Source of the DNA: Protoeuglena noctilucae
Lineage: Eukaryota
Length of the DNA stretch: 64,000 nucleotides
Assembly: GCA_958009085.1 (NCBI GenBank)
Contig: OY253679.1
Location: 186,001-250,000, forward strand
Direction of reading: 5' to 3'
The stretch's first letter is position 1. Each line of letters starts with the position of its first letter. The notes under the pieces are model-generated. The model was not told where the DNA came from. It saw only the letters and a program-made list of their open reading frames with translations, and did not search any database. Made by a program: the position numbers and the translations under genes. Below are positions 15,798 through 64,000 of the stretch, piece after piece.

Positions 15798-16220
15798 GGG
15801 CGTGGACGGCTGTGCTTTGTGTGGCGGAGCTGTGGTGCGGCTCCTTAACAACTGACTATATTAATATAATCACAAGTTATTTACTTATCGCTGTCTATCT
15901 CCCATAGAGTCGCCCCTTAGGTTTTCAAAGATGGGTGTCTGAACAGGCACGGAGAGGGCCATGGAGGGGCTACGGTCGACATGACCAATCGATTTGAAAA
16001 TCGGAACAGAATGTCGACATAAAACACGTATGCTTTACACAGCAGTGTGTTGAGGTGGTGAAAAGAAGTCACAAGGCGACAAGGCGGGTGGCAGGGCATG
16101 GCACATTGCCCATCTCCCTCCCTCGCCACAGCACAAAACAGTCTCTCAATCAGCTCTTATTAGCAGCTAAGCAGAGGCAGTACCTCACTTAGCTGTAATG
16201 CATTGTATTGGAGAAGTCTC

Positions 16221-18821
16221 TCAGTCAGCCCCTGCCCCGATGGGTGTGCCCACAGGCAGCCCCGCAGTCGCATCTCCAACTATGGTCTTGCTCACCCCCA
16301 CACCGCCACCCACGCCGCCACCCCCGCTCTCATCGCCACTGCCACCCACCAAGCTACCCTCACCCTCCTTGCCACCCTCAGCAACGCCACCCTCCCCACC
16401 CTCCCCAGCGCTGCCGGCCCCATCACCCCCGGCCGCCTCCACCCCCTCACCGAATGCATCCGCACCCTCACCACCGCCCCGCCCACTGCAGCCAACACCA
16501 TCCCCAATCGACCCTCCCAACGACACCTCAGCCACGGCCCCAGTGACTGCCTCAGTTGCCGCCTCGCCCACTGCCGTCGCCACCCTCTCTGCAGCCGCCC
16601 GCGCACCAACCCCATCGCCATCACCATCACTGCCACCCTCGCTACCACCCCCATCGCCACCCCCGCTGCCACCCTCAACCCCACCCCCACCGCCACCCTC
16701 CCTGCCGCCCTCGTCCCCCCCACTCTCGGTGTCGATGATGGTGAGCCTATGAGCCCTCACCGTGCCCATCAGAGACCGGCAGAGTTTCTCGAGCGTCGCT
16801 GCGAGTAGGGAGAGCAGATAGGGGAGCAATGGACATAGATAGTAACCATTTTATACCAAACAATGGTCACTACATCAAACCAATCATTGCAATCGCCATT
16901 CCATCCCATCCCATCGCTCACCGTTCCTGGCCTGCACCTTGGCCATCGATTGCAGGGCACTCGCCGCCGCCGCCAGCTGCCCCGTCATCGCCTGCTTCTC
17001 CTCCAAAGCAGCCAGCAGCGCGCGGCGGGCCTCGGCCACCTGGCGGTCCTGCGATGAAGGGAACGCGATAACGCGTTTGATATCATATAAAATGTCAATT
17101 TCGCTTCTTTGTGATTGGCTGTTGAAGCGAGGGAGAGCGGCCGAGAGAGCGGTGCGCAGTGCAGAGACCAACCCATCCAAGACGCCCGCTGACCCAGCCC
17201 CGTCCACTCCCAACTACTGCTACTCACACACTCGCGTGTCTTCATTCGTAACAATGATGACAATTTGAAATTCGAATCCCAACCCCCCCCTCGCCTTCTC
17301 CTCGGCCACTTTGGCCGCCGCCGCCCTTCCTTTCCGCAGCACCCGGGCCTCCTCGGCCAGGGCCTCCGCGAGCTCCTGGTACTTTTGAATCCCGCCGCGC
17401 ACGTCCTCGAACTGTTTCAAACGCCCCTGGATCTCCTCGACCCACTTGGCGCGCTGAGCCTCGGCCTCTCCCACGCGGGCGCTGAGGGTGGGGGTGGTGG
17501 GGTAAGTGAGATTAGAATTATTGACATGTATAGCTAAATGCTTATTGTATGTATGTATATGATCGGGGGCATGGACGGGGGTGCGGAAGAGATGCAGTTA
17601 TTACAACCAAGGCGCTCGTGCTTCTTGCATCATCATCCACCCACCCACTTACCGTAATCACGTCATCATTCAAATTCAAACACCAACGCATCCCCTGAGT
17701 GACTCACATGAGGGCCTCGTTCCTCTGCCGCTCGGCCTCCACCTCCGCCGCCACGTCCCGCAGCTGACGCTCGTGCAGAGCCTTCTCGTCCGCAATCACC
17801 TTCTTCTGCGACGTGAAAAGGAGAGCGAAAGACTTTATAATTATTACAATAACTGTAATACATAACTGTAATACTTTTTATCTATACTATATATTTAGGT
17901 CCATCGGCGCGAATCCACCAGCCCCTGCACCTCATCTCTCTCCCGCTGCACATTGCACTGCATATCCCATCTATATCCTCGCCTGCAGCTCCACGAGCTC
18001 CTGCATCTTCTGGACCCTCTCCGCGAAACGCTCCAGCTGCTCGCGGCACACGGCGCGCTCCCGCACCAGCTCCTCGTTGCGGCCCAGCGCGTCCTCCAGG
18101 CTCTGCCGCACCGCCTCGATCTGACCGCGAATTTCCGCCATCCCGTCCGCCTGCGCCGCGTGAAGCGCGGCCGCGGCGGCCTCGGCCCGCTCCTTCAGCG
18201 CGCGGTTCTGCGCCTGCAGCTCGCGCGTCACGTTCTGCAGCCGGTCGTTCGCGTCCGATATCTTGTGGAATTTCTCCTCCATCCGCAACTTGTCGCGCTT
18301 CGCCGACGCCTCCCGGCGCTCCGCGGCCTTCAGCGCCCGCTGCAGGGCCCGCACGTCCGAAGCCAAATCTGCCGCCGCGGAGAGCGCCCGCGCCAGCTTG
18401 GCGTCCGCATCGTGGTCCCCGGAGGACGCGCACGTCACCAAATCGCGCAGCTCCCGCTTCCGCTGCGCGAGAGACTCGGCGAGCTCGGACGGACCCGCGG
18501 CCGCGTCCAGCTCCTGCGTGCGAGGCGGGGAGCCGGGCGCGGGTCACGCGCGCGAAGCAGGACCTCGAGGAGATGGCGCGGCCGGACGCGCGGGGCTCCC
18601 CGGCCGGAGCCGAGCGCGCGGATGCCGCCCACGCATTCGAAAGGGCGGTTGAGAGGGACGGGCCGCGCGGTGGCGGAGATCGGTCCCGGGCTTCACCAAG
18701 ACGAAGAGGAAGGCAAAGAAGTCCCATCGGAGCGCCCGGGTTTTCCACTCGCCTGCACCCTCTGCTTCAGCACCGTCACGGTCGCGGAGAGCGTGGGTCC
18801 CTGCATCACGTCCGGCGCCAT
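16221..18821 (-). CDS. Taxilin-family coiled-coil protein with Gly/Glu-rich tail
   Basis: Exons 18821-18753, about 18513-17983, 17805-17708, 17481-17295, 17048-16922 and 16798-16221 give ANDRLQNVTRELQAQNRALKE, RLKQFEDV, ALLAALEEK and TLEKLCRSL, resembling taxilin motifs (KLESLCRELQ..N..LKE, KFEEFQ, LEKLCRALQ). Confidence 0.75.
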
Positions 18822-26400: not shown

Positions 26401-29400
26401 CCCACGGCCGCAACGTGCTGTGGCCCCGCCCGCCGGTACAGCTGTACCCGTCCGGCCACAGCCCCGCGCATCTGCGTGTGGAGACGGCTTTGGAGAAAGA
26501 GGAGAGGGCGAGGGAGGAGGAGCGGCGGCGGGTGCTGGCAGCGGGGAGCGCGGTGGTCCCTCGCGCCCGTGCGCTATCCCGTGGGCCCAGGCGGCCCCTG
26601 TCGAGCGCGAGCCAGTGAGTGGGGGTGTGGGGAGGGTAGTGGTAGGGTGGTGGGGAGAGGGGATGTGCAAAGGGTGGCGAATGCGATCGCATTGACATGG
26701 AGTGAGCACCGTGAGTGTCCGGCGTAACTCTTGTAGTGAGACCATTTTGTATCGTCACTGCCTTTCTTCTCCTCACCCCCCGCAGTGCCTCGGTCAGCAG
26801 CAAGAGCCGGGCCGACCTGGGCAAGGCGAGGAGCTTAGCAGGCGACCACGCATCGAGAGTCGACAAGGGCGATAAGGTCGATAAGACCAAGAGCCAGAAG
26901 GTGGTGGCGCCGGTGGCAGTGGCAGTGGCTGCGGCGGAGGATGCGCCTGGGCTGAGGGAGGTGCGGGGGGGGCAGCGGGGGGCTCATGCGGAGGCGGAGG
27001 CGGCGAGGGGGGCGGTGGTGCGGCTGGGGGCGTGGAGGGCAGGTGAGAGGGTGCGAGGAGGGTGGTGGGGGAGTGGCTGGGCAGTTGTGAAGGTGGGGGT
27101 GAGGGTGTGGGGGGTGGCAGTAGGGGGGCTGGGCAAATGTGAGGGCGCTGGGGTTGCAATGCAGGTTACACAACACTCGTATGCAAACCCCTTTCACGCA
27201 GACCCTCCGCCACCCAGCACCGACGCGGCCCCTGGGGCTGCGGAGGAGTCTTCACGGCGCCCGTCGCTGTGGCAGCCCCGCCACCCCTACTGGCGGGACA
27301 CACTGCGGGGGCTCAACTGGGACGACGAGCCGCGCATCACGCCCGGGGCGATGGTCGAGGTGAGATGCGGTGATGATCCTGTGTGGCAAACGCATGCCCC
27401 GCCATCTCGGCACCACACATCTCGTGCTTCACAACTCACCCCCAGCCGCCTCATGTCTCATGTGCAGTCTGCATGATAGATCAACAATTAATTCCTGCCC
27501 TCCCCCAGCGCTGCGAATTTCTGGACCTGGTCCCCAGTCACGTCATCTCTCATATACCATGACTATAACAGAACAACAACCAGTATACTCCCTCCCCCCA
27601 GTGCTGCGAGTTCCTGGGCCTCGTCCCCAGTCACCTGGGCGTGCGCGACGTGAGTGCGTGCTTCCACGCCGCCGCGCGCCACCTCCGCGGCCGCGCGTCG
27701 CGGGGGGTGCCCTGCGCGACCAGCCCCGCGGGACCGGTCCTCGACTACGGGGGATTCCTGGACTGCCTGGGGAGGTGCTTCGTGTGCGCCATGGTGAGCG
27801 TGTGAATGACTGTTATAACACACTTGGGACTCATCGCCGTGTCACTTTTGTTGTATTCATCCACACGTTCCCACGCACCCACTGACCAGCACCCCTCTCT
27901 TCTCTCCCTCTCTCCCCCTCCCCCTCCCCCACCACTCACCGACCCCCATCCCACACCTCACTCTCTCCCTCTCTCCAACTCCCCATCCCTTACCTCTCTC
28001 CCCCACCCACCCACCCACGCAGGCCCCCACGGACCCCTTTCTGAGTTTTTTCCTCCTCGGTGGCGACTGCCCCCTCCCGGGCGCACTGAGCGACGCTTTA
28101 GAGACCCAACTCACCGCCGCCATGCGACGATCCGCACCCAAGCGACCTGCCACCACCGCCACCTGTGGGGCCAGGGACCGACCGAACGGGCCCGGGGCTG
28201 CGCTGGCGATGCGCCGCGCCAACGAAAGAGCCGAGAGGGTGGCGCCGGGGGCTGGCAGGGGGGGCGGGACCGACGCGGGGGGACACGCCGCCGCACGGCG
28301 CAGCGTCGGGTCTGTGGGGAGGTGAGGAGCTGTGCGTGCGTGCGTGTAGGGCGAAGCGGGGCTGACCATTATACTTTCACATGTCTCCTTGTATCGCCAT
28401 CTGACTATTGCACTTGCTTGGTGTACGCCTGAGCTCCCCACATCACAACCCCATCCCTGCACTTGCCCGGCGTCCCCCGCAGTCGCCTGGGCTCCCTCCC
28501 CGAGGCCGAGGCGGTGCGTGCTCTGGCCAAGGACCTCCACGATCAGTGGGACGCGGTGACCAAGCCGGGGGGCAGGAAGGACCCCATCTTCGTCGATCAC
28601 ACGGCGGAGAGGGTGTTGCGGGAAGAGTACATGCCACAGGTGAGTGATAGAGAGCAGGGGTGAGGGATGGAGTAGCATGTGTGGTGCGGAAAGAATACAA
28701 CTCTTTCACAGAGTATTTGCTCCCACCCTCACCTGCGCTTCCACTCCCGCCTCAGCCCCCTCCACTCCACTCACACCCCCACTGACCCTGCCACCTTAAC
28801 CTCACTTCCATACCCACTCCCATGCCCCTTTCAGAAGCCCCAACCCACAGGCACCACCCCCACTCAACCAACCACATTAATCTTCCCTTCACTCCCCTCT
28901 CTCCCCTCAGAAGCCCCAGCCCACGGGCGCCACGACCTGGGGCACCTTCGGGGGCATCGTGCCCGGCATGCGCCCTCAGGAGGAGACCTTCCTGGTGTGG
29001 GTCAAGGACGAGTGGAAGAACCTGGGAGACGACCCGGAGTTTCGCATACAAAACGGAATGTGGGTCGAGGACCCCTCGTTCAAGTGAGATGAGAGCGTGG
29101 CGAGCGGACGGGAGCGTGTGGCTGGCACCGCGTAGCTGGGTCGTTGGGGTCGCGCCGGGCGCGTCGTGCAGGTTGTATTCTTGCATTTTTTGCGCAGCTG
29201 GGCGCGAATGTGCCGATCCGCGCGCGCAGGGTGGGGGGCAAGGAGCTGCCGGGCCGGCGGGCGCAGCTGCTTCGTGGCTTCGAGGAGGCGGTGCGGAAGG
29301 CGGTGCGGTCGGCGATGGACCTCACAGGGCTGGGATCGGAGGCGGCGTACGATCTCTGGGGCGCCCTGGAGAAGCACTCGAGGGACGGGAAGGCGCACGC

Positions 29401-47079: not shown

Positions 47080-50000
47080 ATGGCCCTCGCCGCGGCCTGC
47101 TCCCGCGCGTACGTGCAGGTGATCATTCACTCCACATAGACTTATCTGCTGCCGGGGCCCACGCTGATCACGCCTCCGTGCCCGCACGGCTGCTCAGCAA
47201 TGCCGTTTCTCCACGCGAGGGGGCGGTGCATCTCCGGACGATACGCATTCACACCAAATGGGTGCCGCTCGGATGTCATGGTTTCGTTTGCGGAGGGGAG
47301 AGTGTTTTGGAGATGCAGCATTCGCTCCCGGCGCTGCTGGGCTCTGGAGGCCATGCACGTGCGAGCGCCGCGATCGGAGCCCAAACGGAGCTTTCTGGTG
47401 GCTTCCTTGATTGCGACTTGTATCTACAGCGACATTTTTGATTGCATGGAGCTCCTGGAATGCGCACGCCGCCTTCCGCGCCCACCACAGCGGCAGATAT
47501 CTCGCCAAACATCTGAAGGGCCCCCGGCGCCCCCAGTCCGGCGGATCAGCTCGCATTGCGTCTCAATTTCAGCTGCCGCTGTTTCTCGCAGGAGCGCGTC
47601 GGCGCCCGCCGCCGAGCGCTGCCTACCGTGGTCGGGGCGCGCCTGCCGTCCCCACCAGGCACTGCCCTTTTCGCCGCGCCGCGCGCCGGGCGCCCTTCCT
47701 CGCGGCGCCACGCTGCGGCCGAGCAGCTCGTGACCGAAAATGAGCGCACGACGGCAGGGGCAGGCGAGAGCGCGCGGCCCCGCGGCGCGCGTCTGTGGTG
47801 CGTCTCCACCCACATTTGCGTCGCTGCCGCGCGCCCGCTGGACGCTCCTCTCCGCGCCTCCGTCGCACGCAGAGCCCAGCGGCGATCCCTGGCGCGACGC
47901 CCCGTGGAGCGGCATGCAGTGGACGGTCTACCGCGGCAAGGCCTACGACCTCACCGGCTACCTCGCTTCGGGCCGACACCCGGGCGGCCAGTGGCTGCTG
48001 CGCCTGGCGATCAAGCGCGAGGCGACGGCTCTGTTCGAGTCCTACCACCTGCGCCCCGAGGTCGCGGCCGCCCACCTCCGCCGGCTGCCTGAGATCCAGG
48101 GCTTCCCCATCAACGCCGTGCCCCCGTCCCCTCGCCCCAACGACTCGGAGCTCTACAACGCCATCCGCGAGCGGTGAGGACGAACGAAACGCATGTGTTG
48201 CAATGTAACTGTTGACAGCGAGAACGGTCATGGGCGTGAGGCGCCGCGAGGTGGCGGGAAGGGAGGGGATGCGGGTTGACATGCGGCGGGGTGTGGGTGC
48301 TCGCCAGCGGTGTTGAGAGCGCGCCCCTGAGGCCGCGTTGCGATCTCCGCGCCGCAGGGTGAGGCGGGAGGTGTTCAAGGGGGAAGACGCGAGCGGGGTG
48401 CACCGGTCCGGGACCGAGGGCGCTGCTCTGGCGGTGCTGGGGTACGCGGCGCTGGCGTGGGCGGCCTACTACGCCTCGCCCAACGTGCTCACGGGCGCCG
48501 CGCTGGGGCTGGCGGGGGCCTGGATCGGGTGAGGCGCGGGGTGGGGGGGAGCGGCCGGGGTGCGGGTCGTGTGGGAGGGTGGCAGTGGTCTCCATACCAT
48601 AAGGCAGGATGGAGGGCGTCGGTTCAATGTGTCAACTTTCTCTTAGCCACCCTTCCTGTGATGCTTTGCATAGACCCTTAGAGTACGCTCACCGTTACCA
48701 CGCACCCCCCCCTGCTCCTCCTCCCCCAGCCTGACGGTGCAGCACTGCGGCAACCACGGCGCCATGTCGACCAACGCGACCCTGAACGCCTTCTACGGCC
48801 TCTGCGCTGACTTGACGGGGGGCTCCGCGCTCATGTGGCGCTACCACCACCAGGTCTCGCACCACATCCACTGCAACGACGAGGCGTTCGACGAGGACGT
48901 CTTCTCGGGTGAGTTGTGTTCTTACAATGTATGACTCGAGTCATCCAAACCCGACATGCACGGCTCGTGGAGTGCTGAAGTGCTGGGGCTAAGACACTCG
49001 CACCCTTGCATTGACCACTTCCACCCACTCTCCTGCTGCACACTCGCACTCTCGCACTCCCCCTGTCACTCACCTCACCCCCTTCATCTGTCATCCCTTG
49101 GTGCCACCCGCAGCCCTGCCCTTCTTACGTTTCGACCCCCGCCTCGAGCGCAAGTGGTTCCACCGCTACCAGCACCTCTACATGTGGCTGATGTACCCCT
49201 TCCTGCAAGTCGTCTTCCAGATCGGGGACTGGAAGGCGAGCAGGCCTGGCTCGGAGCGTGCTGTGTGTTACAGCTGCAGGCATGCCGATGTTGCCGATAC
49301 AAATACGCCGGTGTTACAACCACAAGTATGTTTCTGCCAAAAACATTAGCGTGCTGGTGCAACAATCGCAAGCATGACTTGCCATTAACATGACACTACC
49401 AGTACCACCGTCACATCCTCCTGCACGCAGGGCCTGCTGACGGGCCGCACCCCGGGCGCCACGCTGTACGGCGCCAGCCAGGGCGAGCGGTGGTCGGTGG
49501 TGTTCGGCAAGCTGGCCCACTACGCGCTCCTGTGGGTGCTGCCCGTGGTGGCACACGGCTTCGGGGCAGTGCTGCCCGCTGCCCTCGCTTACACGGCCAT
49601 GCAGGCGAGTGGGGCGGTGGCTGTGCATGTGTGCGTGAGCACGACATGCTCACAAGCGGGAGTCGGGCGGCAGCTGTGTATGCGTTTGTGAGCAGATGAG
49701 AGGGCGCGTGGGCGGTGGCTGTGCATGTGTGTGTGAGGGCTGATCGCGCTCCTGTGGGTGCAGCATTAATAAGGGTTTGGCACGACACGCATACCAAGTC
49801 AAGTTCGCAGGGCGTCATGCTCAGCACCGTTCGCCGTGTCCCATGTCACGTGTGCTGTGCTGTGTATGCAGGGCATCGTGCTGAGCACCACCTTCGCCGT
49901 CTCGCACAATCTGGAGGAGAACAAGCCCAGCCAGGGCAGGGCGGGGAGCGTGCTGGACCAGGAGTACATGGAGAGGGACTGGTGCCTGCAGCAGGTGAGG

Positions 50001-50659
50001 GTTGATGATGATGGTCAGTGGCATGGCTTGTTATATGAACAGTGCATGGAGAGGGGTTGGTGCCTGCAGCAGGTGGGAAGCGTGGTGGATGAAAGTTACA
50101 TGGAGACGAGTTGAATCAACTGACCCACTCACTGCTGATTGGTACAGAAAAAGGCTCTAAGGCCCTCCTTCAACTGAACATTCTCCACTTACTGTTAACC
50201 ACAACTACCACACATGCCTCGCCCGCAGATCCAGACGTCGTCCAACTGGGGCGGCGTGGTGGGCAACTTCTTCACCGGGGGCCTGAACCTGCAGATCGAG
50301 CACCACCTCTTCCCCGCCATTGCCTTCGTGCACTACCCCGCCATCGCCCGCATCGTCCGCGACGAGTGCAAGAAGCGGGGGGTCGAGTACGCCCACTACG
50401 ACACGCTGCCGGAGATCCTGGGGCGCTACGTGAGGTACATGCGGGACGTGGGGACCCAGGACGTTCCCGAGGGGTGGAGGCGCATGGAGGACGGGGCCTG
50501 GGGGACGCGGCAGGTGACTGGCTTGGCTGGGGGGCTGTGCTTGGCTTGGTTTGAATGTATGAGAAATGCAGTAGGTGATTGGCGACTGGCCTTAAATTGT
50601 TACGTGGCTTGATCGCGTATAGTCCCCCTTTCTCGCAGACCGCCCTGAGCAAGCTCTGA
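47080..50659 (+). CDS. Cytochrome b5-fused front-end fatty acid desaturase, most like the plastid MGDG Delta-4 desaturase of Chlamydomonas
   Basis: HPGG heme motif, His boxes QHCGNH, WRYHHQVSHH and QIEHHLFP, plus AVPPSPRPNDSELYNAIRER and TFAVSHN. Transit-peptide-like exons 47080-47118 and 47592-47763; last exon TALSKL-TGA ends at 50659. Confidence 0.9.
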
Positions 50660-51076
50660 GGTTTCTGAGGCTTTGGAGGTTCACCGTCGCGATGCCAGTG
50701 ATGAGCTCGTGATGAGCGGGAGCTGATGACTCGATTGAGGAGGTGCGAGGCCCGCTTTATGTCCACCAGTGGGCGACAAGGCCCAGTAAGTGTGTCTGCA
50801 TGACGTGGTCACAGCATTCGGCGTCAGCAAGATCTGAAACAGTCTGCTTGACCCTGTATGCCGTGGCGGGTGACCGGATGCTCCTACGGGGCAACGCTAG
50901 CTTAAGCGCTTTAGGATTGAACAGACAGATGCATTTATATGATGCACAGACGGCCGCAAGCCGCACAGCCACCTTCCTTGTTTGACAGCGACTATGCAGC
51001 CACCCCTGTGCTTCACAGCCACCCTCACTGCAGCGCCGCAAGCAGTTCCGCTGCCCTCTATGCCATGTAACCACCA

Positions 51077-54000
51077 TCACTGCAGCGTGGCGAGCAGCTC
51101 CGCGGCCCTGTGCTCGACCGCGGCCATCGCCTCCATCGCTCGCACCACGCCACTGTCCATCGCGTCATCCGCGCCCGCCTCCTCCTCCTCCCCAGCAGCC
51201 ACCTGGGGGTCGAAATGACATGCAATATGTTCATTAACGAACATACTTACAACTGGCAGGTGTTCAGAAGCGGCATTGGCTGTGCACCAGCGCGCGACAC
51301 ACGCAGTGGGGCTCTGCTACTATTGCTGGCTGTGCCCCTCCACCCCTCACCCACCCTCGCCCCCTTTCACCTGCACCCCATTCCCCATCCACCCCCTACC
51401 CCTCACCTGCACCCCATTCTCCTCCGCCCCCCAGCCGTCCCCCGCCAGCCCCAGCCGGCCCGACACGGGCGCTGGGGCCGCCTCCACCGCCGCCCGCGCC
51501 GCCCCCACCGCCGCCTCGAGGTTTCTGGCAGCGGCGTCCACGTCGCCTGTCTCAAGCAGCGTCTCCCCCAGCAGCAGCCGCGCCTGGGGGTCCTCCCGGG
51601 CCCGCAGCGCCCTCCGCAGGGCAGAGGCCGCTTCTTCATAGAGCCCCATCGCGATGTACTGCCTGGCCACCTCCACCAGCACCGAGGCGTCGGAGAGGCC
51701 ATACTTGAGGGCAAACCTGGGGGGTGGGGGTGGGGTTTGGGGGTTGGGGTTGGGGTTGATTGACACTCATACAGTCACAGTCCAGTGCTTATCTTAAACA
51801 CTCCATGCCGCTGATCATCTAAAACACGTGAATCGCATGCCACTGCCCACCCCTCGTGTCACCTGAGGCACTCCCGTTGCCACCACCCATTGCCACCCCA
51901 CCCCGCATGTCACCGCCATCACTCCCATTGCTACTTCCGATTTACAACACGCTCATCGCATCCCACTGCCCACCCCTCATGTCACCTGAGGCACCCCTCT
52001 GCCTCGTCCCTCCTCCCCTGCCGCAGATGCACCGCCACCATCCACCCCCACGCCACCGCGTTGCGATCGTCCATGATGTTCGCCTGGGCCAGCGCCATGT
52101 CTGCCTTGTCACAGGCCCCGGCCAGGTAATGACCTACACCCACGCGCTGCCAGACCGTGCTGCACGGGGCGACCTTGCAGGCCTGCAGGGATGTGAGTTG
52201 TTGTTTTATGCGAGGTGGAGTGTGTGAGGGGGACTGGGTGAGATGGTGGCGCTGGGTGCTACCACTGAGGCAAAAAGGTGGTGCCTTCTGCAGCACGTTA
52301 GCATTCTTTATCCAACCACAACACCCCATCTAACAACACCACCCTCTCTCGCCTTCTGCAGCACCGTGAGCGCCCCACATCTATCCAACACCCCCCAGCA
52401 TGCAACCCCTTACTTATCACCCACTCGCACCTTCTGCAGCACCGTGGAGGTTCTCTACTATGCACTTACTTACTCTCTGCTTACTATTTACCACCCACTC
52501 GCACCTTTTGCAGCACTGTCAGCGCCCCCTCCTTGGACCCCATGGCTTCCATGGCGTCGGCCAGTCGCAGGAACACCGTCAGAGAGCAAGCGGACGCATC
52601 ACGGTTGACGGCCACCAGGTACTGCTGGCACGCGCGGCGCATGTGGCCGGCGCTGTGGTACACGTGGCCCTTTAAGATGTTGGGGCGGACGTCAGACGGC
52701 TGCGGGGAGGGGGTGTGGAGAGGGAGGCGTGTGATGTCGAGGAGCGTGATGTGAGAGGGGTGTGATGTTGGGGGGTGGGAGAGGGGTGTGATGTGGGAGG
52801 GAGATGATGTTAGGGGTGCAAGAGGGGTGTGATGTTAGGAGGGGGTGTGGCGGTATGCAAGGTGTGCTGATTACTCTTGTACATACTATCAATCGAGTTA
52901 TCCGATCTCATAGTCTACCAGTCCCCAATCGACTGCCCCCACCCCCCAACCATCCAGTCCCCCACCACCTCACCATCGCCCCCCATCCACACACCCCCCC
53001 ACATACCCCACCCCCCCCCTCACCTCCGCCATCTGCCCCGCGCGCCTCGCCGCCGCCAGCGCCTCCTCCCGCGCCCCCCGCAGCAGATACGCCTCCGCCA
53101 GGCACAGGTTGGCCGCCACCACCGTCGACCTACCAACCGGCTCCCCCGTGCCAAGCACCGTGTTCTTCGACCCCCCCACCGGCCGCTCCGCCTCCCCCTC
53201 CACCCCGTGCCACTCCGCGCCCTTCCGTTTCGCCGCGCCGAGCAGCCCCAGCGCCACAGTGGCAAGCGCGAAGTCGAGCGCCTCTTGCGCCGAACGCACA
53301 AACGGGTCGCGCTCCGCCTGGGCTGCCTGGGCGTTCGAATTCGAACTCGCATCCGGGTTTTTGGAATCGGGGTTCGAATTTGCGACGTTCCCGGCGCTCT
53401 CCTTGGCCAGTCGCTTTGCCTCGTAGACGGCGTTGCGAGCCTCGCGATCGCGGGAGGGGCCCTGGGCCACGAGGATGGCAGCCAGCACCGCCCAGTCACT
53501 CGCGAGGGGTTGAGAAGTGGTGGTGGTGTTAATGGATGTCTTCTTGTTAGATGGTGCGTGGCTGGGGTTGAGGAGCTGGTGGGCGATGGCCTCCGCGTGA
53601 CTGCGGGGAGGGGCGGGGTGGGGGTAAGGGTGATGAGGGGCGGTGTGGGTGGCGGGGGGTGCATGGTGATATCGGAGTGTGGCATGTTAGCAAGCGGATG
53701 CCAGCACAGTGCACAGCTTGCAAGCAGAGGGTGCAAATTGTAACCAAACTGCCGTAAAACAATACCACATTCCCACCCCATGCACTGCCCCGTCTCACGT
53801 GAAGCGGAGGGGGTCCGTGGAGTGCCCCAGGTCCATCAGCACGAAGCACAGAGCACGGAGCGCGTCCTCACGGCCCGGGGAGATCTCCAGGACCTTTTTG
53901 AGGGCCTCGGAGGCGCGGCGGCTGAGGTTGTTGCGCGCGCTGCGATGAGGGGCAAGAGGAAAATATTTAGAGGAATCTTGATGGCCGATTAACGTCGCGA

Positions 54001-56804
54001 TATCTATCTACCATACATATTATCATATCATCGACTCAACCGTACTGATACCATACATCTGCATGTAACACCCCCTCTCACCAGAACCTGGCGTACTGCA
54101 TCCACGTCTCCGCGTCCTCGCACCCCGCCAGTCGATCCAGGTGCAGCTGCTCTGCGCGGTCCGTGGCCCCCACGGCCTCGCACTCATCGGCCAATCGCAG
54201 CATCCGGGCGCGGTCCTCGGAGGTGGGGGCGGGGTGGTCCGGGGCGGGCTGGGGGGGGTGGGGTGGGGGGTGGGTGGGGGTGAGGTGTGAGCATGGGTAT
54301 GGTGGTTACTGTGGTCTGAGATGGGTTGAAGGGGGTGGTACTCGTAGTGGCGGGGGGAGCGGGGTGTATTAGATAGTAGTATTGCAATCAACAGTATCAC
54401 CCATGTAGTGCCCATCACCCCTTAGAATCTCCCCTCACCTGCGGGTGGTACTCGTCCCGGAGCGCCCCCCTCATCTCGTCGCACAGCGTCATGTATAAAT
54501 CATTGTACACGTCCGCCATCTCCTTGGGGGCCAGCTCGCCCCCCCGGTGGTACTTCTCAGACACCACCGCCTGCGGGGAACGGAACAGTGCAGATAGTCA
54601 GACAATCGAGGGTGCTAGTATAGAAGAGAGGGCTGCGATGGGTGAGCGATCATTAGGCCTGCACATGTCACCACCCTCCACTCCCAATACCCCAACCACA
54701 ACACAAGACGTCCCACCCCACCCCACCAGTACCACATCCATATCATCCCAACCAACACTCCACACCCCCCTCTTCCATCACCTGCACGTGTGCCTTGAGC
54801 GCCGCCCGCACCGCCAGGAACTTCCCCGATCGGTTGAGGTCGTACTTCAGGGCCTTCTGCCGGGCCTGCCAGAGCGCCGCGGAGGTCACGCCGACCTCCG
54901 GGGACGCCTCCGCCACCGCCCAGTAGTCCGCCGCCACCTCCCGGGCCAGTCTCCGGCACTCGGATCGGAACCTCGCCAGCGCCGACACGCGCGGGGGCGG
55001 CGGGGGCGCCGGGCGGGGCGGCAGGACGTCCGAGACGGCCACGGCGGGCTGCAGCGGCCGCTCCCAGGGCGGCAGGAGCGGGCGGGAGAGCGCCAGGCGG
55101 AGCACGGCCACCGTGCCCGCTTCGACGAACGGGCAGCGGCCCTGGCTGTCGTCGTCGATCTTAGCGACGTCCTTGCCGTCCTGGGGACCCCGGCGGGGCC
55201 CGAGGGTCGACTCCTTGAAGAAGGGGCCCAGGCATGTGAGGGCGTCGGGCACCGTCATGGTCGCCGGGCAGTGCAGCACCACCTCGGCGCGCCCGGGCTC
55301 GAGGAGCGCCGAGACGTCGACGGCGGACACGGCGCGGTAGGCCATTTCCCCGATATCGTCGACTTTGACGGCGGGGGAGAAGGCGCGGGCCATCTCCACT
55401 GCGATGCGGGACCCGTCGTCGAGGTTTCGCTGGAGATAGGAGACGTCGGGGAGCAGGTAGCGCACGGGGCGGTCGGGGAAGCGCATGCTGCGGGACTCGG
55501 GGTCCAGGGAGGAGCCCTCGACCTGGGGGGAGGGGTGGGGGGGTGGTGGTGGGGGCGATCGGGAGAGGTGGGGGTTACAGGTAGTGGTGGGGGTGAGGTA
55601 GGTAGGGCAGGAGCAAAGATGGTATGCTAAGGAGCAGCGTAGCGCATTGATAGCCAGGGCAGCAGGTCTCAAAAGCACCAAGCACGTTGTCGGCACCTGG
55701 AGGGCGAGCCGCTGGGTGAGGCCCAGGGGCAGGACCGCGGAGATGCGCGCGATCACGTTCCCCTCCCCGACCTTGGCCTGCGCGGTGACGAAGCTCTCCG
55801 GAAGCGGACCCATTGACTCTCCGTACACGCTCAGCACCGTGCACGCCTCGCCCGCCTCAGGTGTCATCACCGACGACGGCTGCAGCGCGCCGCCCTCGCC
55901 ACCCGACTCCTCCCACTGCGAAGGATGTATATTTGCGAATTCCGGACGGCGTATGGCAAAGGATGAAGCGGGGAGTGCGAATTGCTGCAAAAAATGTCAT
56001 TGCAGGCCAAGGGATGCTCTGCGCGCGCGAATCCTGGCCACGCGGATCCCGCAGCTCACCACGGAGACGCTAAGTCCGAACAGAGACATCTCCTTGACCC
56101 ACGGGCCGTCGACCTTGGCCCCCGGGAGGGCCTGCTGCGCAAGGTCGATCTCCCTCTGCTTGCCGAGGACCACGTCGAGCAAGTCGATGTCCAGGGAGCA
56201 CGCCTTGAACTCCCGTTTCTCCATCCCGATGGCCACGATGAGCGGCGTGTTCACCAGGCGGTGCAGGTTGGCCGGCGTCACCTCCATGCGCACGCGGTGC
56301 TCAAAGTTGAGGTTGTAGTGCTCCTTCACGTCGCCGGAAGCCGGCGTGAAAGGCACGGAGGGACCCTGCAAATATCGCGCGATGTGCGGACTGCGGTTAC
56401 GGCCGCGCTGGGTCTCTGCACCCGTGCCCATGCGAGCATGCCCAGCTTTGTGCGCCCCCGCACCTTGACCTTGTCCACGCCGGGAAACGTGAGCTCCACG
56501 AACGTTTGAGGGATCTCCTTAGGCACGTCCGACGTCTGCGCGAGGCAAGGGCGACCGCAGACGGTGCATGGCGCGCGCGCATTTCAAGCATGCGCCACCC
56601 GCGCGGCGCAGGAAGCGATTGGGGAGCCATAGATGCGGCACACGCGGTCATAATTGATCCTATGCTCGCAAGGACGCATCCCCAGACGGAACTGGCCGCG
56701 CATGCGGATGCGCTGCGCCTCACCGTAACCCTCGAGCATTTGGCCAGCTTAACCTGGAACACCACGGTGCGGTGCCCGCCGCCATCTCCCGCGCTTTCCG
56801 TCAT
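51077..56804 (-). CDS. CFAP70: Cilia- and flagella-associated protein 70 (TTC18/FAP70), TPR-containing
   Basis: C2-like N-terminus (LNFEHRVRM...LVNTPLIV), LRLALSRPLLPP, LKYDLNRSGKFLAVRAALKAHVQAVVSEKY, LADECEAVG, and C-terminal TPRs (VWQRVGVGHY...ALAQANIMDDRNAVAWGWM). TGA at 51077-51079. Confidence 0.8.
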
Positions 56805-57199
56805 GGTCGTGTGGCAAGCCCACGCAGCGCAGCGGTGGCTCCGCCGACGGGCGGGAGTCCCCGGTCCGGGTTGCGCCTTTTGGGCCACAGGTCTCGCGCC
56901 CTTCCACTAGCCCGGTACCCTGGGATCGCACGGATGCGACGTTTCTCACGACGCGTCCGCCGACTGCTGCAAACGACGACGAGCGACGAATCCGGCGCGC
57001 CAGAGGCCCCGCATGTGAGCGACGTTTCGCTTGGCCAGCGAGGGCTTTCTTCGCAGGTGCTATCGAGTATTCAAATCGCAGAGGAAACCATGAGCGCTGC
57101 CGTCAATCCCACCGGCAGCGCAGATGGGTGGTGGTGGGCTGATTGGGCGAGCCCGCACATCACTGTCAATCCTAACCAGAGCCTCGGCACCGCTCCTCA

Positions 57200-58828
57200 T
57201 CACTGAGCACCCGAATAAATCTCTGCGGCCTGCGTCTGGTCCCCGTGCCCCGCGGCCATGCCCCCGTTCACGAGCACATTGTCGCCCCGGGTCCCCTCCT
57301 TCCCCGGCCCCATCCCCATCGCCCACGTGTCCCGTTTGCGCGCGCCCTGCCCCTCCAGCGCCCCGTGCGTCTTGGGTGCGGGGCGCAAGTCGGCACTGTC
57401 GCTGGTCATGTTCGCCAGCCTGCGCACACGATCCGGAAACTTGCGAGGTCGCACGGCCCCGGCCCTCGCCCAGCTCATACAGCCCCTCGCGGCACACAGC
57501 AACCAACACTCGCCCCCGCACAACACCCAAACCCTCTCTCACCGGTGCGGCCCCTGACCGTGCGCGTGCGAGTTGCCCGCCGACGCGCCTCCGTCGCTCG
57601 GACCTGCGGCCTCCCCCGTCGAGATGGCGCGGCCTCGGTCCACCACGACATCCTCCCCGCCCCGCGCGCTGCGGACCCCCCCGATCCCCGCGCCGGGGGT
57701 GTCGACGTTCTGGGACCCCCCGCCCGCCACCGCCAGCGAGCTCGCGTCGAGGTGCTGGCCGCCCGCGGCCGCCGAGTGCGCCGCGCCCTGACCCGTGCCG
57801 CTTGACCCGCCGCCCGTGCCGCTCGCCTCCGGCTTGGGCCCGGCCCCCGTGGGCGCCTTGGGAGGCATCGACTCGGTCGCAACCAGCTCCCCGTTGCCCG
57901 ACGTCGACGTGTCACGCTTGGCGGCCGCGGCCGCGCGCGCGTTTGCGTTCGACATGCGCAGGTCCTTCAGGCCCTGCGCCAGCATCTGCTGCAGCTGCTG
58001 CTGCTGGCGCTTGATGTGCCTTGAGATCTTTCGCAGCTCCCGGAGCCTGCGGGGGGCGAGGGGAGCGAGGTGCGTGGATCGCAGATACGTCCATGGTCGT
58101 GGACACATCCAAGCAACCCGGGCCCGGCCCGACATGCGCTGTTTGATAGCGACACCGCGGGCTACCAACGCACCTCTTGAGCAGGACGGTCTGGGCGTCG
58201 GCGTCGGTCGTGATAACACTCACGTCCTTCGGCTCTCGCATGGCCAGCAGCCGGGCCCCGTTGAGCTGCTGCGGGGCGGCGGAGGGGCGGAGCGGATCCG
58301 GAGCGTGAACTCCGACTCGCAAACCGGCCCATTCGCTGCCAGGCACACCGCGCGTTGCATCGGTCGCGTCGACACGCATTGTGCCTCACCTTCACGACAT
58401 CCAGGTTCGGCCGGACTTGCCAGCTCTCGAACCACGCCTCGACGTCAAGCTGCGTCCACTCGGAAGGGTCGCGGATCGACCACTTGCGGTGGCTGATGCG
58501 CTGTTGGAAGACCTGCACGAGGTTCACGCCCGCATCCGCCTGCTGCTGGAGCATCTGGTAGACGGGCGTGGCTTGGTTCTGCTGCTGCGGGAAGAGAAAA
58601 AAAGCAGTTCGGTGAGATCCGGGGCGCCGGCGGGGCGGGAGCGCGCGGCGCGCGGGCCACATTTTTGGAAAACCCGGCGCCGCGCCAAAAGCGGCCGGGG
58701 CGCGCGCTCTCGCGGCGCAAAGCGAGGCGCAGATCGGGGGATGAGTCGACAACGCGTCGACGTGCCGCACGCGCCTTAGGGTCGACGGGAGCCCCCTGCT
58801 CCATGGGCACCGATGCGCCACAGCCCAT
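57200..58828 (-). CDS. N-terminally acylated (MGCGAS) protein with a SAM/Pointed-like domain and a short coiled coil
   Basis: Exon 1 is MGCGASVPMEQGAPVDPK. The following exons give DPSEWTQLDVEAWF...QLNGARLLAM...LLKRLRELR (SAM-like), then poly-Q and a low-complexity tail. Confidence 0.6.
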
Positions 58829-60049
58829 GCTCTCCCCCTGCGTCGCCCGGGTGGCGTACGTGGGGCGGTTCGACGGGTGCAGGTGATCCTGTCCGGGAAT
58901 CGGAGGACTCAGCATTGAAAACGTGAATCCTCAGACCCTTCCCCGCGCAAGCCTGCGACCACTCTGCGGGCGGGGGGACTGGGGGGCGCCGTCGCCCGCA
59001 GAGGACCCTCACGCGCTCCGTTCACGCAACAGCGGGTCTGAAGTCGCCGGTGGTTGACGAGATGGGCGAAAGGAGCGGCGCGCAGGCCCGGTCGGAGCTG
59101 GACAGGGGGGGTAGAGGAGAAACGCCGCTGTGGGCCCGAAAAGGACGGGGTGGACGCTGGGTCGTCCCGTCTCCGAACACGACGGCGAAGACGGAACCAC
59201 GCGCGGCGCGGGAGGGGGCGAGGCGGGGGAGCGGGGCCCCGAAACCCATCCGGAGTTCGGGACGGGCACCGGGCGGGGCATACGCCACTGCAGCCGCTCC
59301 GTTCGCCACAAATACACAGCGACGGAAAAAGTTTCGGGGCCGGGACGGCCTGGCCATGCTCCGCCACGGGGCCGGCAGTAGAAACTCGCCTGACGACGCG
59401 TGGAACCCCACGCCTGCGTCCCTAGCGCTGAGAGCAGCAATCCATTCACGAGGAGCGCGCGGGGAGAGCCACGGTGAGGGGGAGGGGTCGGCCTGGTGAC
59501 GGTCGCGGGCCCAGATTCGCCGGGAAACCGATGAGCGCGAATGTCGTTTGTGACATGAACTGGCGACGGCCCTGTTTGAGCTGGCGCTCAACGACCCCCC
59601 CCCGAAACGCCAGTTGGGTTTGGCTGTTGACGACATTGCCCAAAACGGCGCTCGGCGCGTGATTTACGCGCACCCCCACATCGCCAGGCGCAGCGTCGGG
59701 ACGCGAGGGGAGGGGCCAGGTGGCCATTCGCTGCATCAGCAGCTGACGCCCTGAGCCCCGTTGAAAGCCCAGCGCGCAGCGGGGCCTAGCGGACCTGCAG
59801 GGCGCGCTTGCAAATCGATAGGATCACCAGGCGTCGTCTGGCTGCCAATCCGGTCGCGCAGGTGCGGCTGGGGAATGCTGTTGCATGTTGCGGTAGCGTC
59901 CTTCCTGTTCCCGATAAGTGCCGCGCGTGGCCGGGACCCGCTCGACTCGCAACTCATCAAACTTCCCCCTCCGTCTCTCGGGTGGACCGCAGGTCCTCCC
60001 TCGCGACGTCGTTGTGGAGTCTTTTCTCGGCCTGACCGCGCGCCACCGC

Positions 60050-63000
60050 ATGGCCTCCGAGGCCGCGCCATCGCCACGCCATCGAGGTTCGAAGGGCCGA
60101 GTGATACCGTTTTGCGACCGCGCTGGATCCCCGCGCAGCGCCCGGAGGGATGGACGCCACGTCGGGCGCGGGCCGACCGCTTTCGGCCAAACCGTCCACC
60201 AAGGAGCTCGCGCTGATGGAGGACAAGCATGCTGAGCACACGAGTTTCCTCTTCCGCCAAACCGCGCCGGGCGTGCCCCCCTCCGTCGCCTGCCTCGGGC
60301 AAGTGCAGCGATGCACCAGCTGCGCCTGTTGGCCGTTATGCTTGGCCGTGCTTAGACACCTGCCTACGCGAGCTCGCGCGTTGCTTCCGCAGATCGGCGG
60401 AGGACCACCGGAAGCTGGGTTTGCAGCCCATGCGAACCCTCAAGCTGGTGAGTTGTGACACGGCAGTGGGCATGCATTGATACGTGACGTGCCCCTGCAC
60501 TCCTAGCCACATCCTTATGACGCTGTGACAATCCGCATAGCTGCTCCCCGTTGGTGCTCCCAATCGGTACTGCCAATTTTTGCCTCCCAATCAATGCCCC
60601 ACATCGTTGTTCCCAGGGCGTGCAGTATGCCGGCGTGGCCAACCGGGTGGTGAGGGCGGCCTTCCGCGACGCGGGTTTTCGAGTGGTCAAGGGCAACAAC
60701 TGGAACGTGCTGTGGGGAGCCGCCATGGCACCCGACGAGTACAAGGCGAGGGCCGGGTGTTGGGGGACAGCGAGCGTGTTGTTGTTGCCTCTGTGAGTGT
60801 TGGCGACCTAGCACCTGCAACCAAATTACAAGAGCGCGTCGCCACCGCACCTACTTCACCCCCAACCCTCCCTCGCTCACCACCCCACCGCCCCTCTCTC
60901 GCCACCCCCCTGCAGTCCGTCGGCCTCTTGCCCTACCAGCGCCTCAACCACTTCCCGGGCACCTGGGAGCTGGGCCGCAAGGACAAGCTCTACCGGAACA
61001 TCGCCAAGTTTCGACGCCTCCGTGGCGCCGACTTCGATTTCGTGCCGCGCTTTTTCGTGCTCCCGGACGACTGGGACTCGTTCCGCAACCACGTGTCGCG
61101 CCACCCCAACGCCATGTACATCCGGTGAGGATGCTGCGGCGCGAGATGCGGCATTGAACACTGCGATGCAGCTCCCCGTTGCAGCGGGGGCTGTGGTGAT
61201 GGGAGCGACCCCAGTCTATCACCCTCTACTTTCAAAAGCAGCATCAGATCCTGGGAAAATGCAATAAAATATAAATTGTCAGTTATTTCTTAACTCGATC
61301 TCGCCCTTCGCGCCCCGCAGCAAGCCCCTGGCTTCGTCCCGTGGGCGCGGCGTTCGTATGGTCACGCGCCCGCTGTCCCTGCCGAAGGGAAAGGAGATGT
61401 TGGTGCAGGAGTACGTCGCGGATCCTTTGCTGATACACGGTCACAAGTTCGATCTCCGCATCTACGTCGCCGTCGTGTGCCTCGACCCCTTACGGTGACC
61501 GCCACTGCCACTGGCTATTAACATCGTGCTGTCATGTCCACACCCCAGGACCGTACCCTGATTTACCTCCATGCCACGCCGTGCATTCTTCACAGCGCAC
61601 GCACCCTTCACCCATCCCTACACCCACCCCTTCATACACCTACCCTCAACACACCCACCCACCTCCCGCCCCCCTCCCCCCCACCCCCGCAGCATCTACG
61701 TCTATCGGGAGGGCCTGTGCCGCCTGGCCAGCGAGCGCTATTCGAAAGACCCAAAGGACCTTCGCAAGAGGGGCGTGCATGTGACCAACTTTTCCATCAA
61801 CAGCAAGCTGGTGGGCGAGAGGGTCGGTGGGGCGGCAGCAGAGGGTGCGGCCTTCACGCTGCTCACGCGGGGCGGGCCCGCGGGCGAGGCGTCTATTAAT
61901 GCTCGGAGTAAGCTGGGAAGGGAGCGGAGTGGGAGCGAGGGGTCGACAGCAACACGGTCGTCATCAGCTACCGTGGCGGTGGGTCATGGTGGGGGTCGGA
62001 GTGGGGGCTTGGGTGGGGCCGGGGGTGCGTCCGGGCGGCGGGGGTGGTCGCGCGGGGCCGCGGGGCGTCTCGCGGGGTTAGACGAGGGTGATGAAAGCGA
62101 GAGTGGCGAGAGCGACGGTGATGACGACGAGGGTGTCAGTTTGGACAGCGAGGATGAGGGGGGCAGTATCGGGAGCGAGGGGGAGGGGAGTGACGGAGAG
62201 GGGGGGTGGGAGGAGGTGGGGGGTGCGCATGGGGAGGTGGGGGCAGGCGGGGTGGCGAGAGGTTGCGAGGAGCGCACTACGCCCGACCAGCCAGGCGTGA
62301 CGGACCTCAAATGGTCCCTGGGGGAGCTGAAGGGGTACCTGAGCAAGCAGGGGTACGACTGGGAGCCCGTGTGGGAGGGCATACTGGATGTGGTGGTGCG
62401 TACGGTGCAGGCTGCCGAGCCTCGCATGAACGCACTCAACCACGTGCACCTGCCGAGCCGGCTCAGTTGCTTCGAGTTGTTTGGGTTCGATATCATGCTC
62501 GATTCTCGGCTCAAGCCGTGGCTCATCGAGGTCAACACCGGGCCCAGCCTGGCCGCCACCGCGCCCCTGGACCGCGCCATCAAGTTCCCGCTCCTGAGGT
62601 GAGAGTCATATGCGATATGCATCCTGTTATCACAAATGCTGATACTCATATCAAGTTCCCGCTCCTGATGTGAGGGGAAGGGGTGATGGGCAATCTATTA
62701 TCTACTACATTGCAATGGGCCATATTTCCAAATAATATCGAGCTCCCACTCCTCAAAATGTGCTGTGTTCGTGATCAACAAAACGTGTTCCGTTCCCATG
62801 CAGGGACCTCCTCCACCTGGTGGGCGTGCCGGCGACCAACAAAGCACGATACGTGGCGGCACAGAAGGCCGAGCAAGAAGCACGTCTCACGGGCATCACC
62901 CGAGCGGTCAGCGCGCGTGGTGCGGTCGGCCGGGGGGGTGACGCACCGGGCTCTAGCGCCGCGGGGCAGGGGTCGCGCCGCGAGCGGCCAGTGCTGGTGC

Positions 63001-64000
63001 AGGCGGCGTCGTCGCGCATCAACCGCCGCACGGTGGGGGAGGCCAGCGCCACGGACTTCCGGGGCGTGTTGCCGGAGGACCTGCCACTGTCCATCAGGTG
63101 AGGGATTAGTGATGTTAGTCACCGTCTGATGCTAGTCATGCTTGTGACTTCCGGGGGGTGCTACCGGAGGACCTGCCTTTGTCTATTAGGTGAGGGATGC
63201 GTAAGATTTGTGATGCTATGCTCATGAAGAGCAACCTGCTTCGTAGGACACTGACATGCCACTCCCGCAATCATTGCCAACCTCCGTCCCGCCCTATCGA
63301 CACCAGTGCTCAGCACACTCATACCACCCTTCACCCCACCCCCTCGCAGGGAGACGGAGGCCGAGCACGCCCGCCGCGGCGACTTCGTCCGCGCATTCCC
63401 CAGGGAGGACGACCCCGACCGCAACCATGACCTCTTCGACACGCCGCGGTACGAGAACGAGCTGGTCCGCGCGTGGCTGCACCACAAGCGGGGCCTGCTA
63501 ATGCGGTATGGCACGGTCGACCCACGGGAGCTGCCCAGGGGGCACCCGGACCGGGTGGCCACGAGGAGGGCGATAGGTGAGGTGCTGTGTACGAGTGGAG
63601 ATGAGAGAGGGGTGGCGATGTGCAGGGCGCTTGGTGAGGGTTGCGTGCACTGGGTTGAGATGTGCTAAGAGTGAGTTTACATGTGAGGGGCGCAGGGCGA
63701 CCAACTCATCACTGACTCATGTCACTACACCTAAGTGTTCTCATTTAATATACAACGTGCATGCTCTCCTCATGCCTGCAGGCTGCCCCCCCAGCCCAGG
63801 CGCCCCCGCCTCCCCGTCCCGAGCATCCAGCACCACACACGGCCCATCATCGACCGCCACGACCCTCGCGGCGCCCATGCCAGCGCCCGCCAGCGCCGAC
63901 GGCACCGCCCGGAGTCGCCAGGCATCAATCACAACGCCGAGCGTCGCACGTGACAGCGCAGACCACATCGGCATAACACCGCCGTCAGAACCCCAACCAC
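60050..64000 (+). CDS. Tubulin-tyrosine ligase-like polyglutamylase (TTLL4/5-like); start approximate, runs off the window
   Basis: [123 protein letters not shown]. Confidence 0.93.

Follow-up and report, generated by a model that had tools for sequence, protein, structure and literature searches.

Why should an intron carry a nearly exact copy of the end of the preceding exon, complete with its 5' splice site, and why should every difference between copy and source be synonymous in the frame of the exon? The question is raised by a TTL-family gene in the 64-kb stretch of DNA analysed here (the window), where the copy, which we call an echo, lies well inside the intron and beside an exon that is expressed and spliced.

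An exon end repeated within the adjacent intron

The window is GC-rich and eukaryotic in character, with GT-AG and some GC-AG introns; its GC content ranges from about 0.52 to 0.72 in 2-kb steps, and its sequence occurs in marine metagenome and metatranscriptome runs. Positions 1-2000 are markedly less GC-rich (0.52) than the remainder. Translations of four exons upstream of the site match PF03133 (TTL/ATP-grasp) at 25.5-79.4 bits, above the cut-off of 20.1, and the TTLL label attached to the gene in the preliminary description is therefore correct. The exon that ends in the duplicated stretch occupies 62804..63097 on the plus strand and is delimited by the RNA joints 62596>62802 (cut shifted by +2) and 63094>63347 (cut shifted by +3), within a frame that is open over 62775..63101. 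It is followed by a GT..AG intron of 252 nt (63098..63349, plus strand, from the same joint), which begins with GTGAGGGAT and ends with CCTCGCAG, and then by the next exon (63350..63576, plus strand, between joints 63094>63347 and 63574>63780), which starts G|GAG ACG and is translated as ETEAEH onward. Neither the echo-bearing exon nor the next exon matched a Pfam family. The one protein that a homologue search with the former brought up was the window's own ORF, with no match in a further 1051 longer candidates, a Protein Data Bank sequence search with the latter returned no hits at E <= 1, and none of 501 pattern matches to the latter in metagenome contigs was confirmed as a related locus.

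The source of the echo is the last 44 nt of the exon (63054..63097), comprising 14 codons for DFRGVLPEDLPLSI and the AG of a split Arg codon, together with the authentic 5' splice site GTGAGGGAT at 63098..63106, the donor used in the RNA contig described below. After a spacer of 39 nt (63107..63145) the exon end recurs at 63146..63189 and is joined to an identical GTGAGGGAT at 63190..63198, whose GT lies at 63190-63191; all of these features are on the plus strand. The two copies are spaced 92 nt from start to start. Compared over their full extent (63054-63106 against 63146-63198), they are identical at 46 of 53 positions, including all nine bases of the donor, and the longest identical block is about 14 nt. 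The seven differing bases are spread over six codons; five occupy third positions, the remaining two are first bases of Leu codons, and either copy translates as DFRGVLPEDLPLSI(R). Codon comparison thus bears out the preliminary description in its central observation, that all seven differences, a Leu codon swap among them, are synonymous; the ranges given there for the copies are accurate to within a base or two, and the echo donor does lie at 63190. That description also pointed out that reading on from the first copy leads to a stop, and that an in-frame acceptor would require an intron of only about 38 nt. Both points hold: the ORF 62775..63101 terminates at a TGA at 63099-63101, and an AG at 63134-63135 delimits a possible 38-nt intron (63098-63135) that would restore the frame (92-38 = 54 nt).

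Similarity stops abruptly at the 5' side of the repeat, where the 12 bases preceding each copy are unrelated, and the resemblance of the spacer to the sequence following the echo is weak, being confined to a local alignment of 16 columns (p = 0.016-0.019 against shuffles). No second copy of the intron or the spacer was found by blastn within the 64-kb window. Rfam gave no matches at E <= 1 over 62000-64000, and the predicted RNA fold of 63040-63360 is unremarkable (z = +0.57). Chance resemblance does not account for the repeat, since a blastn comparison of the intron with the 64-kb window returned the echo at E = 1.3e-8, and since the window contains 25 short-range direct repeats (at least 22 nt long, spaced 52-393 nt), against none in three Markov-shuffled versions of it, which also yielded no inverted ones.

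The echo in transcripts and in genomic DNA

Positions 49000-64000 were compared with three metatranscriptome runs and one metagenome run, drawn from at most three samples and all in the form of assembled contigs, a form in which rare isoforms and intermediates are lost; 15 of 27 splice joints were listed. One RNA contig (X8, depth 17.3) carries the joints 62596>62802, 63094>63347 and 63574>63780, which, once the shifts are applied, correspond to GT..AG introns at 62599-62803, 63098-63349 and 63577-63781. In this single contig, from one run, the first donor is joined straight to the acceptor of intron 63098-63349, and the echo lies within the 252 nt that are skipped. The remaining RNA pieces over the site (X11, 63014-63219; X10, 62744-63120) are unspliced. 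The echo is therefore spliced out; the intronic status assigned to it earlier agrees with its absence from the one spliced transcript contig seen. The comparison of RNA across 63000-63360 that the preliminary description had suggested accordingly shows, at the level of contigs, that the echo bases are skipped and that the donor at 63190 goes unused among the listed joints, no joint starting at 63190 being present among the 15 listed of 27. In the same region, an X10 RNA contig ends in an A run at 50933, likely the polyadenylation site of a plus-strand gene at 49.1-50.9 kb.

These observations bear directly on whether the echo might itself be a small exon. In that case the 38-nt micro-intron 63098-63135 would be removed and the donor at 63190 used, to give a minor isoform longer by 18 codons, in which the 14-residue peptide would appear a second time. 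The sequence would accommodate such an event, with an AG in place, an insert of 54 nt that keeps the frame, no stop in that frame over 63136-63189, an intact donor and differences that are all synonymous. However, the sole spliced contig runs from 63097 to 63350 and shows neither a micro-intron nor a duplicated peptide, the outcome that the preliminary description had named as contrary to its own reading. An intron of 38 nt would also be much shorter than any recorded, the shortest of the 15 listed joints skipping 94 nt and the longest 426 nt. Nor would the explanation extend to several similar echoes elsewhere in the window whose differences are likewise mostly synonymous but which cannot be spliced in. 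Thus one of acceptor type, at 11569-11616, is not followed by a donor, and the reading frame would be shifted to a stop if the echo at 10998-11060 were included. We regard a minor isoform of this kind as quite improbable. A conventional cassette or duplicated exon was rejected as a description of the locus, the spliced contig lacking the echo and the listed introns spanning 94-426 nt.

A role of the echo in the RNA itself, as a recursive splice site or as a spare or decoy site for U1, was also weighed. Recursive splice sites, or ratchet points, occur in long animal introns of tens of kilobases and consist of a pyrimidine tract followed by AG|GT. The echo resembles them in juxtaposing acceptor-like and donor-like signals inside an intron: a pyrimidine-rich tract precedes AG|GTGAGGGAT, and splicing from the first donor to that point would regenerate exactly the exon|GTGAGGGAT junction, ready for a second step. 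The last four of the seven changes (in the Pro, Leu, Ser and Ile codons) each place a T within the 14 bases before the AG|GT of the echo, and the donor is conserved at nine of nine positions. On the other hand, an intron of 252 nt needs no stepwise removal, and the juxtaposition of signals is explained by copying alone. Other donor-type echoes, such as those at 667-708 and 10999-11052, lack either the AG or the pyrimidine tract, the sister echo at 62650, in the intron before this one, has lost its AG, and selection acting at the level of RNA would ignore codon positions. No intermediate appears among the listed joints, although contigs cannot show rare intermediates. A function of this sort seems to us very improbable.

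It could finally be supposed that the two copies are alleles or strain variants set in tandem by an assembly error, for which synonymous-only differences would be just what is expected between alleles of a constrained exon. The DNA evidence speaks against this. A contig from an independent sample (X6, 62416-64000) matches the window exactly, with no other letters and no gaps, and carries the copies in tandem; the same arrangement is present, again without differences, in the unspliced X11 and X10 pieces, which come from two other RNA libraries, and all sampled words of the stretch occur in runs X1-X4. Diversity across 49000-64000 is very low, with one variant place listed in 15 kb over the four runs (61482 T>C, in one low-depth contig), and the 16% divergence of the exon copies lies far above it. 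With the tandem arrangement thus reproduced without a difference in independent DNA, the copies are neither alleles nor an assembly error, contrary to the second outcome that the preliminary description had held against its reading, and this explanation is refuted for practical purposes.

Synonymous differences between exon and echo

If the echo is intronic, does its codon pattern nevertheless betray some constraint? Many exon/echo differences will be synonymous whatever the echo does, because the real exon fixes synonymous changes only. Our null model therefore let the exon fix only such changes while the echo drifts; differences were counted by the Nei-Gojobori method in the frame of the exon, with one echo per exon (13 pairs in the window), over a grid of mutation models with transition weights of 1-8 and G/C mutabilities of 1-5. 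Under this null the expected synonymous share for the TTL-family echo is 0.44-0.62, and the probability that seven of seven differences are synonymous ranges from 0.003 with uniform mutation to 0.037 with strong transition and G/C bias. Corrected for the 12 pairs in the window that show any difference, it becomes 0.005-0.10. In the TTL-family echo none of about 30 non-synonymous sites and none of the nine intron bases is changed, whereas differences are present at 7 of about 12 synonymous sites. Taken singly, the other 11 pairs show nothing significant (P between 0.07 and 1.0).

Pooling the 13 pairs gives 36 synonymous and 19 non-synonymous differences over 120.7 and 338.3 sites, respectively, and hence pS of 0.298, pN of 0.056 and a pN/pS of 0.19, below the 0.5 expected with uniform mutation and freely drifting echoes. 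By codon position the differences number 12, 10 and 33. The pooled probability of at least 36 synonymous differences among 55 lies between 0.0003, for uniform mutation, and 0.21, where transition and G/C bias are strong; with the TTL-family pair removed, the corresponding value for at least 29 of 48 is 0.005-0.46. The pattern is only suggestive because the mutation spectrum cannot be fixed from the window, and on these codon counts a codon-level constraint on the echo is suggestive at most. The preliminary description had called this the clearest case of coding constraint on a non-coding copy; the all-synonymous pattern stands and is unusual, but with a corrected P of 0.005-0.10 the constraint itself is not established.

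The direction of the differences adds detail. G/C occupies 10 of 14 third positions in the TTL-family echo and 13 of 14 in the exon copy; exons have a GC3 of 0.84-0.92 and introns a GC content of 0.44-0.64, and the third positions of the echo have thus shifted towards the composition of introns. CpG deamination was discarded by inspection as a source of these third-position changes, none of the seven differences being a CpG transition. Over all pairs, third-position differences from exon to echo are symmetric (12 G/C>A/T, 10 A/T>G/C and 10 C<>G). At non-synonymous sites our own tally of transitions from exon to echo gives eight A/T>G/C against four G/C>A/T, an excess that is the opposite of simple decay of the echo. 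In two pairs, 1828-1875 and 52505-52528, it is the echo that has G/C-ending codons and the exon that has A/T-ending ones, so that to judge from the sequences the change there seems to have been largely on the side of the exon. The first of these lies in the low-GC gene of positions 1-2000, where the exon looks as if GC3 had been lost after copying.

Taken together, these features might be read as those of an echo kept true to its codons, either by gene conversion with the exon, such that harmful changes in the echo would be selected against in a very large population, or because it was copied not from the adjacent exon but from a diverged functional homologue, be it a paralogue or a distant allele. 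All seven differences are synonymous with no change at about 30 non-synonymous sites, the pooled pN/pS of 0.19 is a value typical of coding sequence, third-position differences are symmetric as between two coding copies, the echoes at 1828-1875 and 52505-52528 keep G/C-ending codons opposite A/T-ending exons, and echo boundaries are sharp. Against this, conversion frequent enough for selection to be effective would be expected to remove the synonymous differences as well, and these stand here at about 0.6 per site; the longest identical block, moreover, is of only about 14 nt. Shallow searches of proteins, of metagenome contigs and of the 64-kb window found no such homologue, and under realistic mutation spectra the synonymous excess is not significant. 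We consider it unlikely that the echo has been kept codon-true in either way. The broader proposition, that exon-edge echoes as a class keep their codon sense though they are spliced out, through exchange with the exon (by gene conversion or repeat collapse in a huge population) or through rare translated isoforms, is in our view equally doubtful.

The account that we favour, as the probable one although with appreciable room for error, is that the echo is what a small local duplication across the exon-intron junction left behind, a neutral relic with a silent pseudo-donor. A direct duplication of some 50-90 bp would have copied the last 44 bases of the exon and the start of the intron to a point 92 nt downstream in the same intron. 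The spliceosome uses the upstream, authentic donor, and the echo leaves with the 252-nt intron, its pseudo-donor intact; were the second donor used instead, the retained stretch would begin with a TGA in frame. Since the upstream donor is the one in use, the echo would therefore be a tolerated, non-coding relic that never enters the main mRNA, and we infer from this that it is neutral; what the data show directly is the duplication, its place in the intron, the use of the first donor and the tandem order of the copies in DNA. Of the seven differences, some would be synonymous substitutions fixed in the exon and the rest drift in the echo that happened to land on third positions. Like duplications would have given rise to echoes at many other exon edges, and within introns, of this genome.

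Small duplications at other exon edges and their counterparts in known systems

The short-range direct repeats of the window supply the context for this account. Three of the 25 are protein-level repeats in one gene (6281-6400), and in at least 13 the adjacent intron contains a copy of an exon edge together with the splice signal; these occur on both strands and at donors as well as acceptors. The echoes are 25-63 nt long and lie 52-215 nt away from the stretch they copy, and some exons have two or three copies. Besides the present locus, they are found in the regions 659-838, 1003-1134, 1301-1467, 1715-1877, 10496-10685, 10847-11060, 11559-11832, 27502-27634, 28831-28933, 49963-50075, 52282-52530 and 62579-62674. 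Donor-type source exon ends are located at 795-836, 1828-1875 (with a GC donor), 10848-10901, 49965-49994, 52505-52528 (up to three echoes), 62579-62598 and 63054-63097, and acceptor-type source exons at 1005-1037, 10662-10685 (two echoes), 11784-11831 (two echoes), 27602-27634 and 28911-28931. Multiple copies are seen at 11569/11684/11784 and as four donor copies at 52285-52507, and one echo has a source internal to its exon (1424-1465). Looser scans (24-33 nt windows, 70-83% identity) added few candidates (2346, 18192, 49664, 49802 and 55023).

The sister echo mentioned above lies in the preceding intron of the TTL-family gene (62579..62674, plus strand), where the exon end 62579-62598 and its GTGAG recur 71 nt downstream; 24 of 25 positions are identical, AG|GT having become AT|GT, and the copy is removed with intron 62599-62803. 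At least one other repeat, 49612/49710, appears to be wholly intronic when the ambiguous joint 49598>49866 is read as intron 49604-49870. The youngest echo is the exon-internal one on the minus strand (1301-1345 against 1423-1467), in which 44 of 45 positions are identical and the sole difference turns CGA into TGA; it stops 11 nt before the donor, and its flanks cannot be aligned with those of the exon copy.

A consistent geometry underlies the class. In donor-type echoes the exon is always the upstream copy and in acceptor-type echoes the downstream copy, which is the sole arrangement that leaves the mRNA unchanged. All three echo-bearing introns with a listed joint (49995-50228, 62599-62803 and 63098-63349) use the upstream donor and skip the echo. 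The genome is thus steadily supplied with small direct duplications, of which those straddling a junction survive.

The form of the duplicating event is less clear. If whole units had been duplicated in tandem and had decayed uniformly, the sequences flanking the copies on the intron side should align. They do so at p <= 0.05 in 6 of 10 pairs and give p > 0.25 in 4 of 10, compared with 0 of 9 exon-side controls. The whole-unit tandem model fits poorly because the intron-derived flanks of young echoes, namely those at 1424-1465 (44/45 identical) and 10847-10909 (59/63), hardly align; on this sequence comparison whole-unit tandem duplication with uniform decay is doubtful. A short patch-like copy, or a tandem unit followed by fast turnover of the intron, are equally possible. 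Templated insertion of the polymerase-theta type was set aside, there being no inverted repeats (22 nt or longer, spaced 30-450 nt) against the 25 direct ones, although inverted copies could also be removed by selection against hairpins.

Several other features of the window were recorded in passing. GC-AG introns seem common (58585-58774 and 58964-59389 on the minus strand; 49604-49870), one minus-strand gene has five listed joints, two of which read CT..GC, and GCGAG opens several of the duplicated donors, with echo donors at 1822-1827 and 52347-52352. The introns 49995-50228, 62599-62803, 63098-63349 and 63577-63781 look strand-asymmetric by eye, with 5' halves that are G/T-rich and contain TGATG-like words and 3' ends that are C/A-rich before CAG. 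A periodic repeat of 9-15 nt extends over 12441-16729, G-rich on the plus strand at 12.4-15.8 kb and C-rich at 16.3-16.7 kb; these stretches are possibly low-complexity coding sequence or an intronic satellite. At 6274-6789 a protein-level repeat with a period of about 96 nt has units containing LVEAGADV-like stretches and may be of ankyrin type.

Taken alone, the echo would be an ordinary by-product of small duplications, its pseudo-donor ignored by the spliceosome. It nonetheless amounts to a natural experiment on the choice of 5' splice sites, in which a 9-nt donor occurs twice in identical form, 92 nt apart and each time in a near-identical upstream exon context, and only the first is seen in use (in one contig). 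Echoes occur at a notable share of introns, with at least 13 exons involved in 64 kb and all copies direct, and a census of them could measure the rate of small duplications, the decay of pseudo-sites and the neutrality of non-coding copies beside their coding source. Were the synonymous bias true genome-wide, it would imply a surprising form of indirect selection, which the present data do not show; echoes would then record an undescribed interplay of small duplications, splice-site choice and purifying selection.

A full-text literature search returned no report of exon-edge echoes on a genome-wide scale, and only single-locus analogues. Among systems with which the echoes may be compared, introner transposons, as treated by Gozashti et al. 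2022 (PMC9860276), form multi-copy families and generate target-site duplications of 3-9 bp. They share with the present case an occurrence in marine protists, intron-associated direct repeats and splice sites possibly recruited from a duplicated target. The repeat here, in contrast, is 53 nt long (25-63 nt in the other echoes), and intron and spacer are single-copy within 64 kb. On these grounds, and as far as the 64 kb allow a judgement, an introner or transposon origin was rejected.

A related class is the creation or alteration of introns through tandem genomic duplication (Hellsten et al. 2011, PMC3265369), with cases in the potato RdRp gene (PMC4974935) and in Drosophila (PMC2891723). 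As there, small intragenic duplications that include splice signals are tolerated as splicing restores the original mRNA; in those accounts duplication of an exonic AGGT makes a new intron, whereas here an existing intron has gained a copy.

The closest described case is the minisatellite in intron 7 of the human F7 gene. According to Borensztajn et al. 2006 (PMC1557585), the first 37-bp unit spans the exon-intron boundary, identical pseudo-donors follow, and the most upstream donor is used while the others remain silent. Both loci thus have a direct repeat across an exon-intron boundary, and at ours too it is the first of two identical GTGAGGGAT donors that is used (as seen in one contig). 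They differ in that the F7 repeat, as presented there, is a head-to-tail array of 37-bp units in a mammal, while the echo, found in a marine protist, is one additional 53-nt copy set off by a spacer of 39 nt. The alignability expected of a head-to-tail array is limited here to the 16 columns shared by the spacer and the sequence after the echo. A further difference is that echoes recur in this window at many introns, acceptors included.
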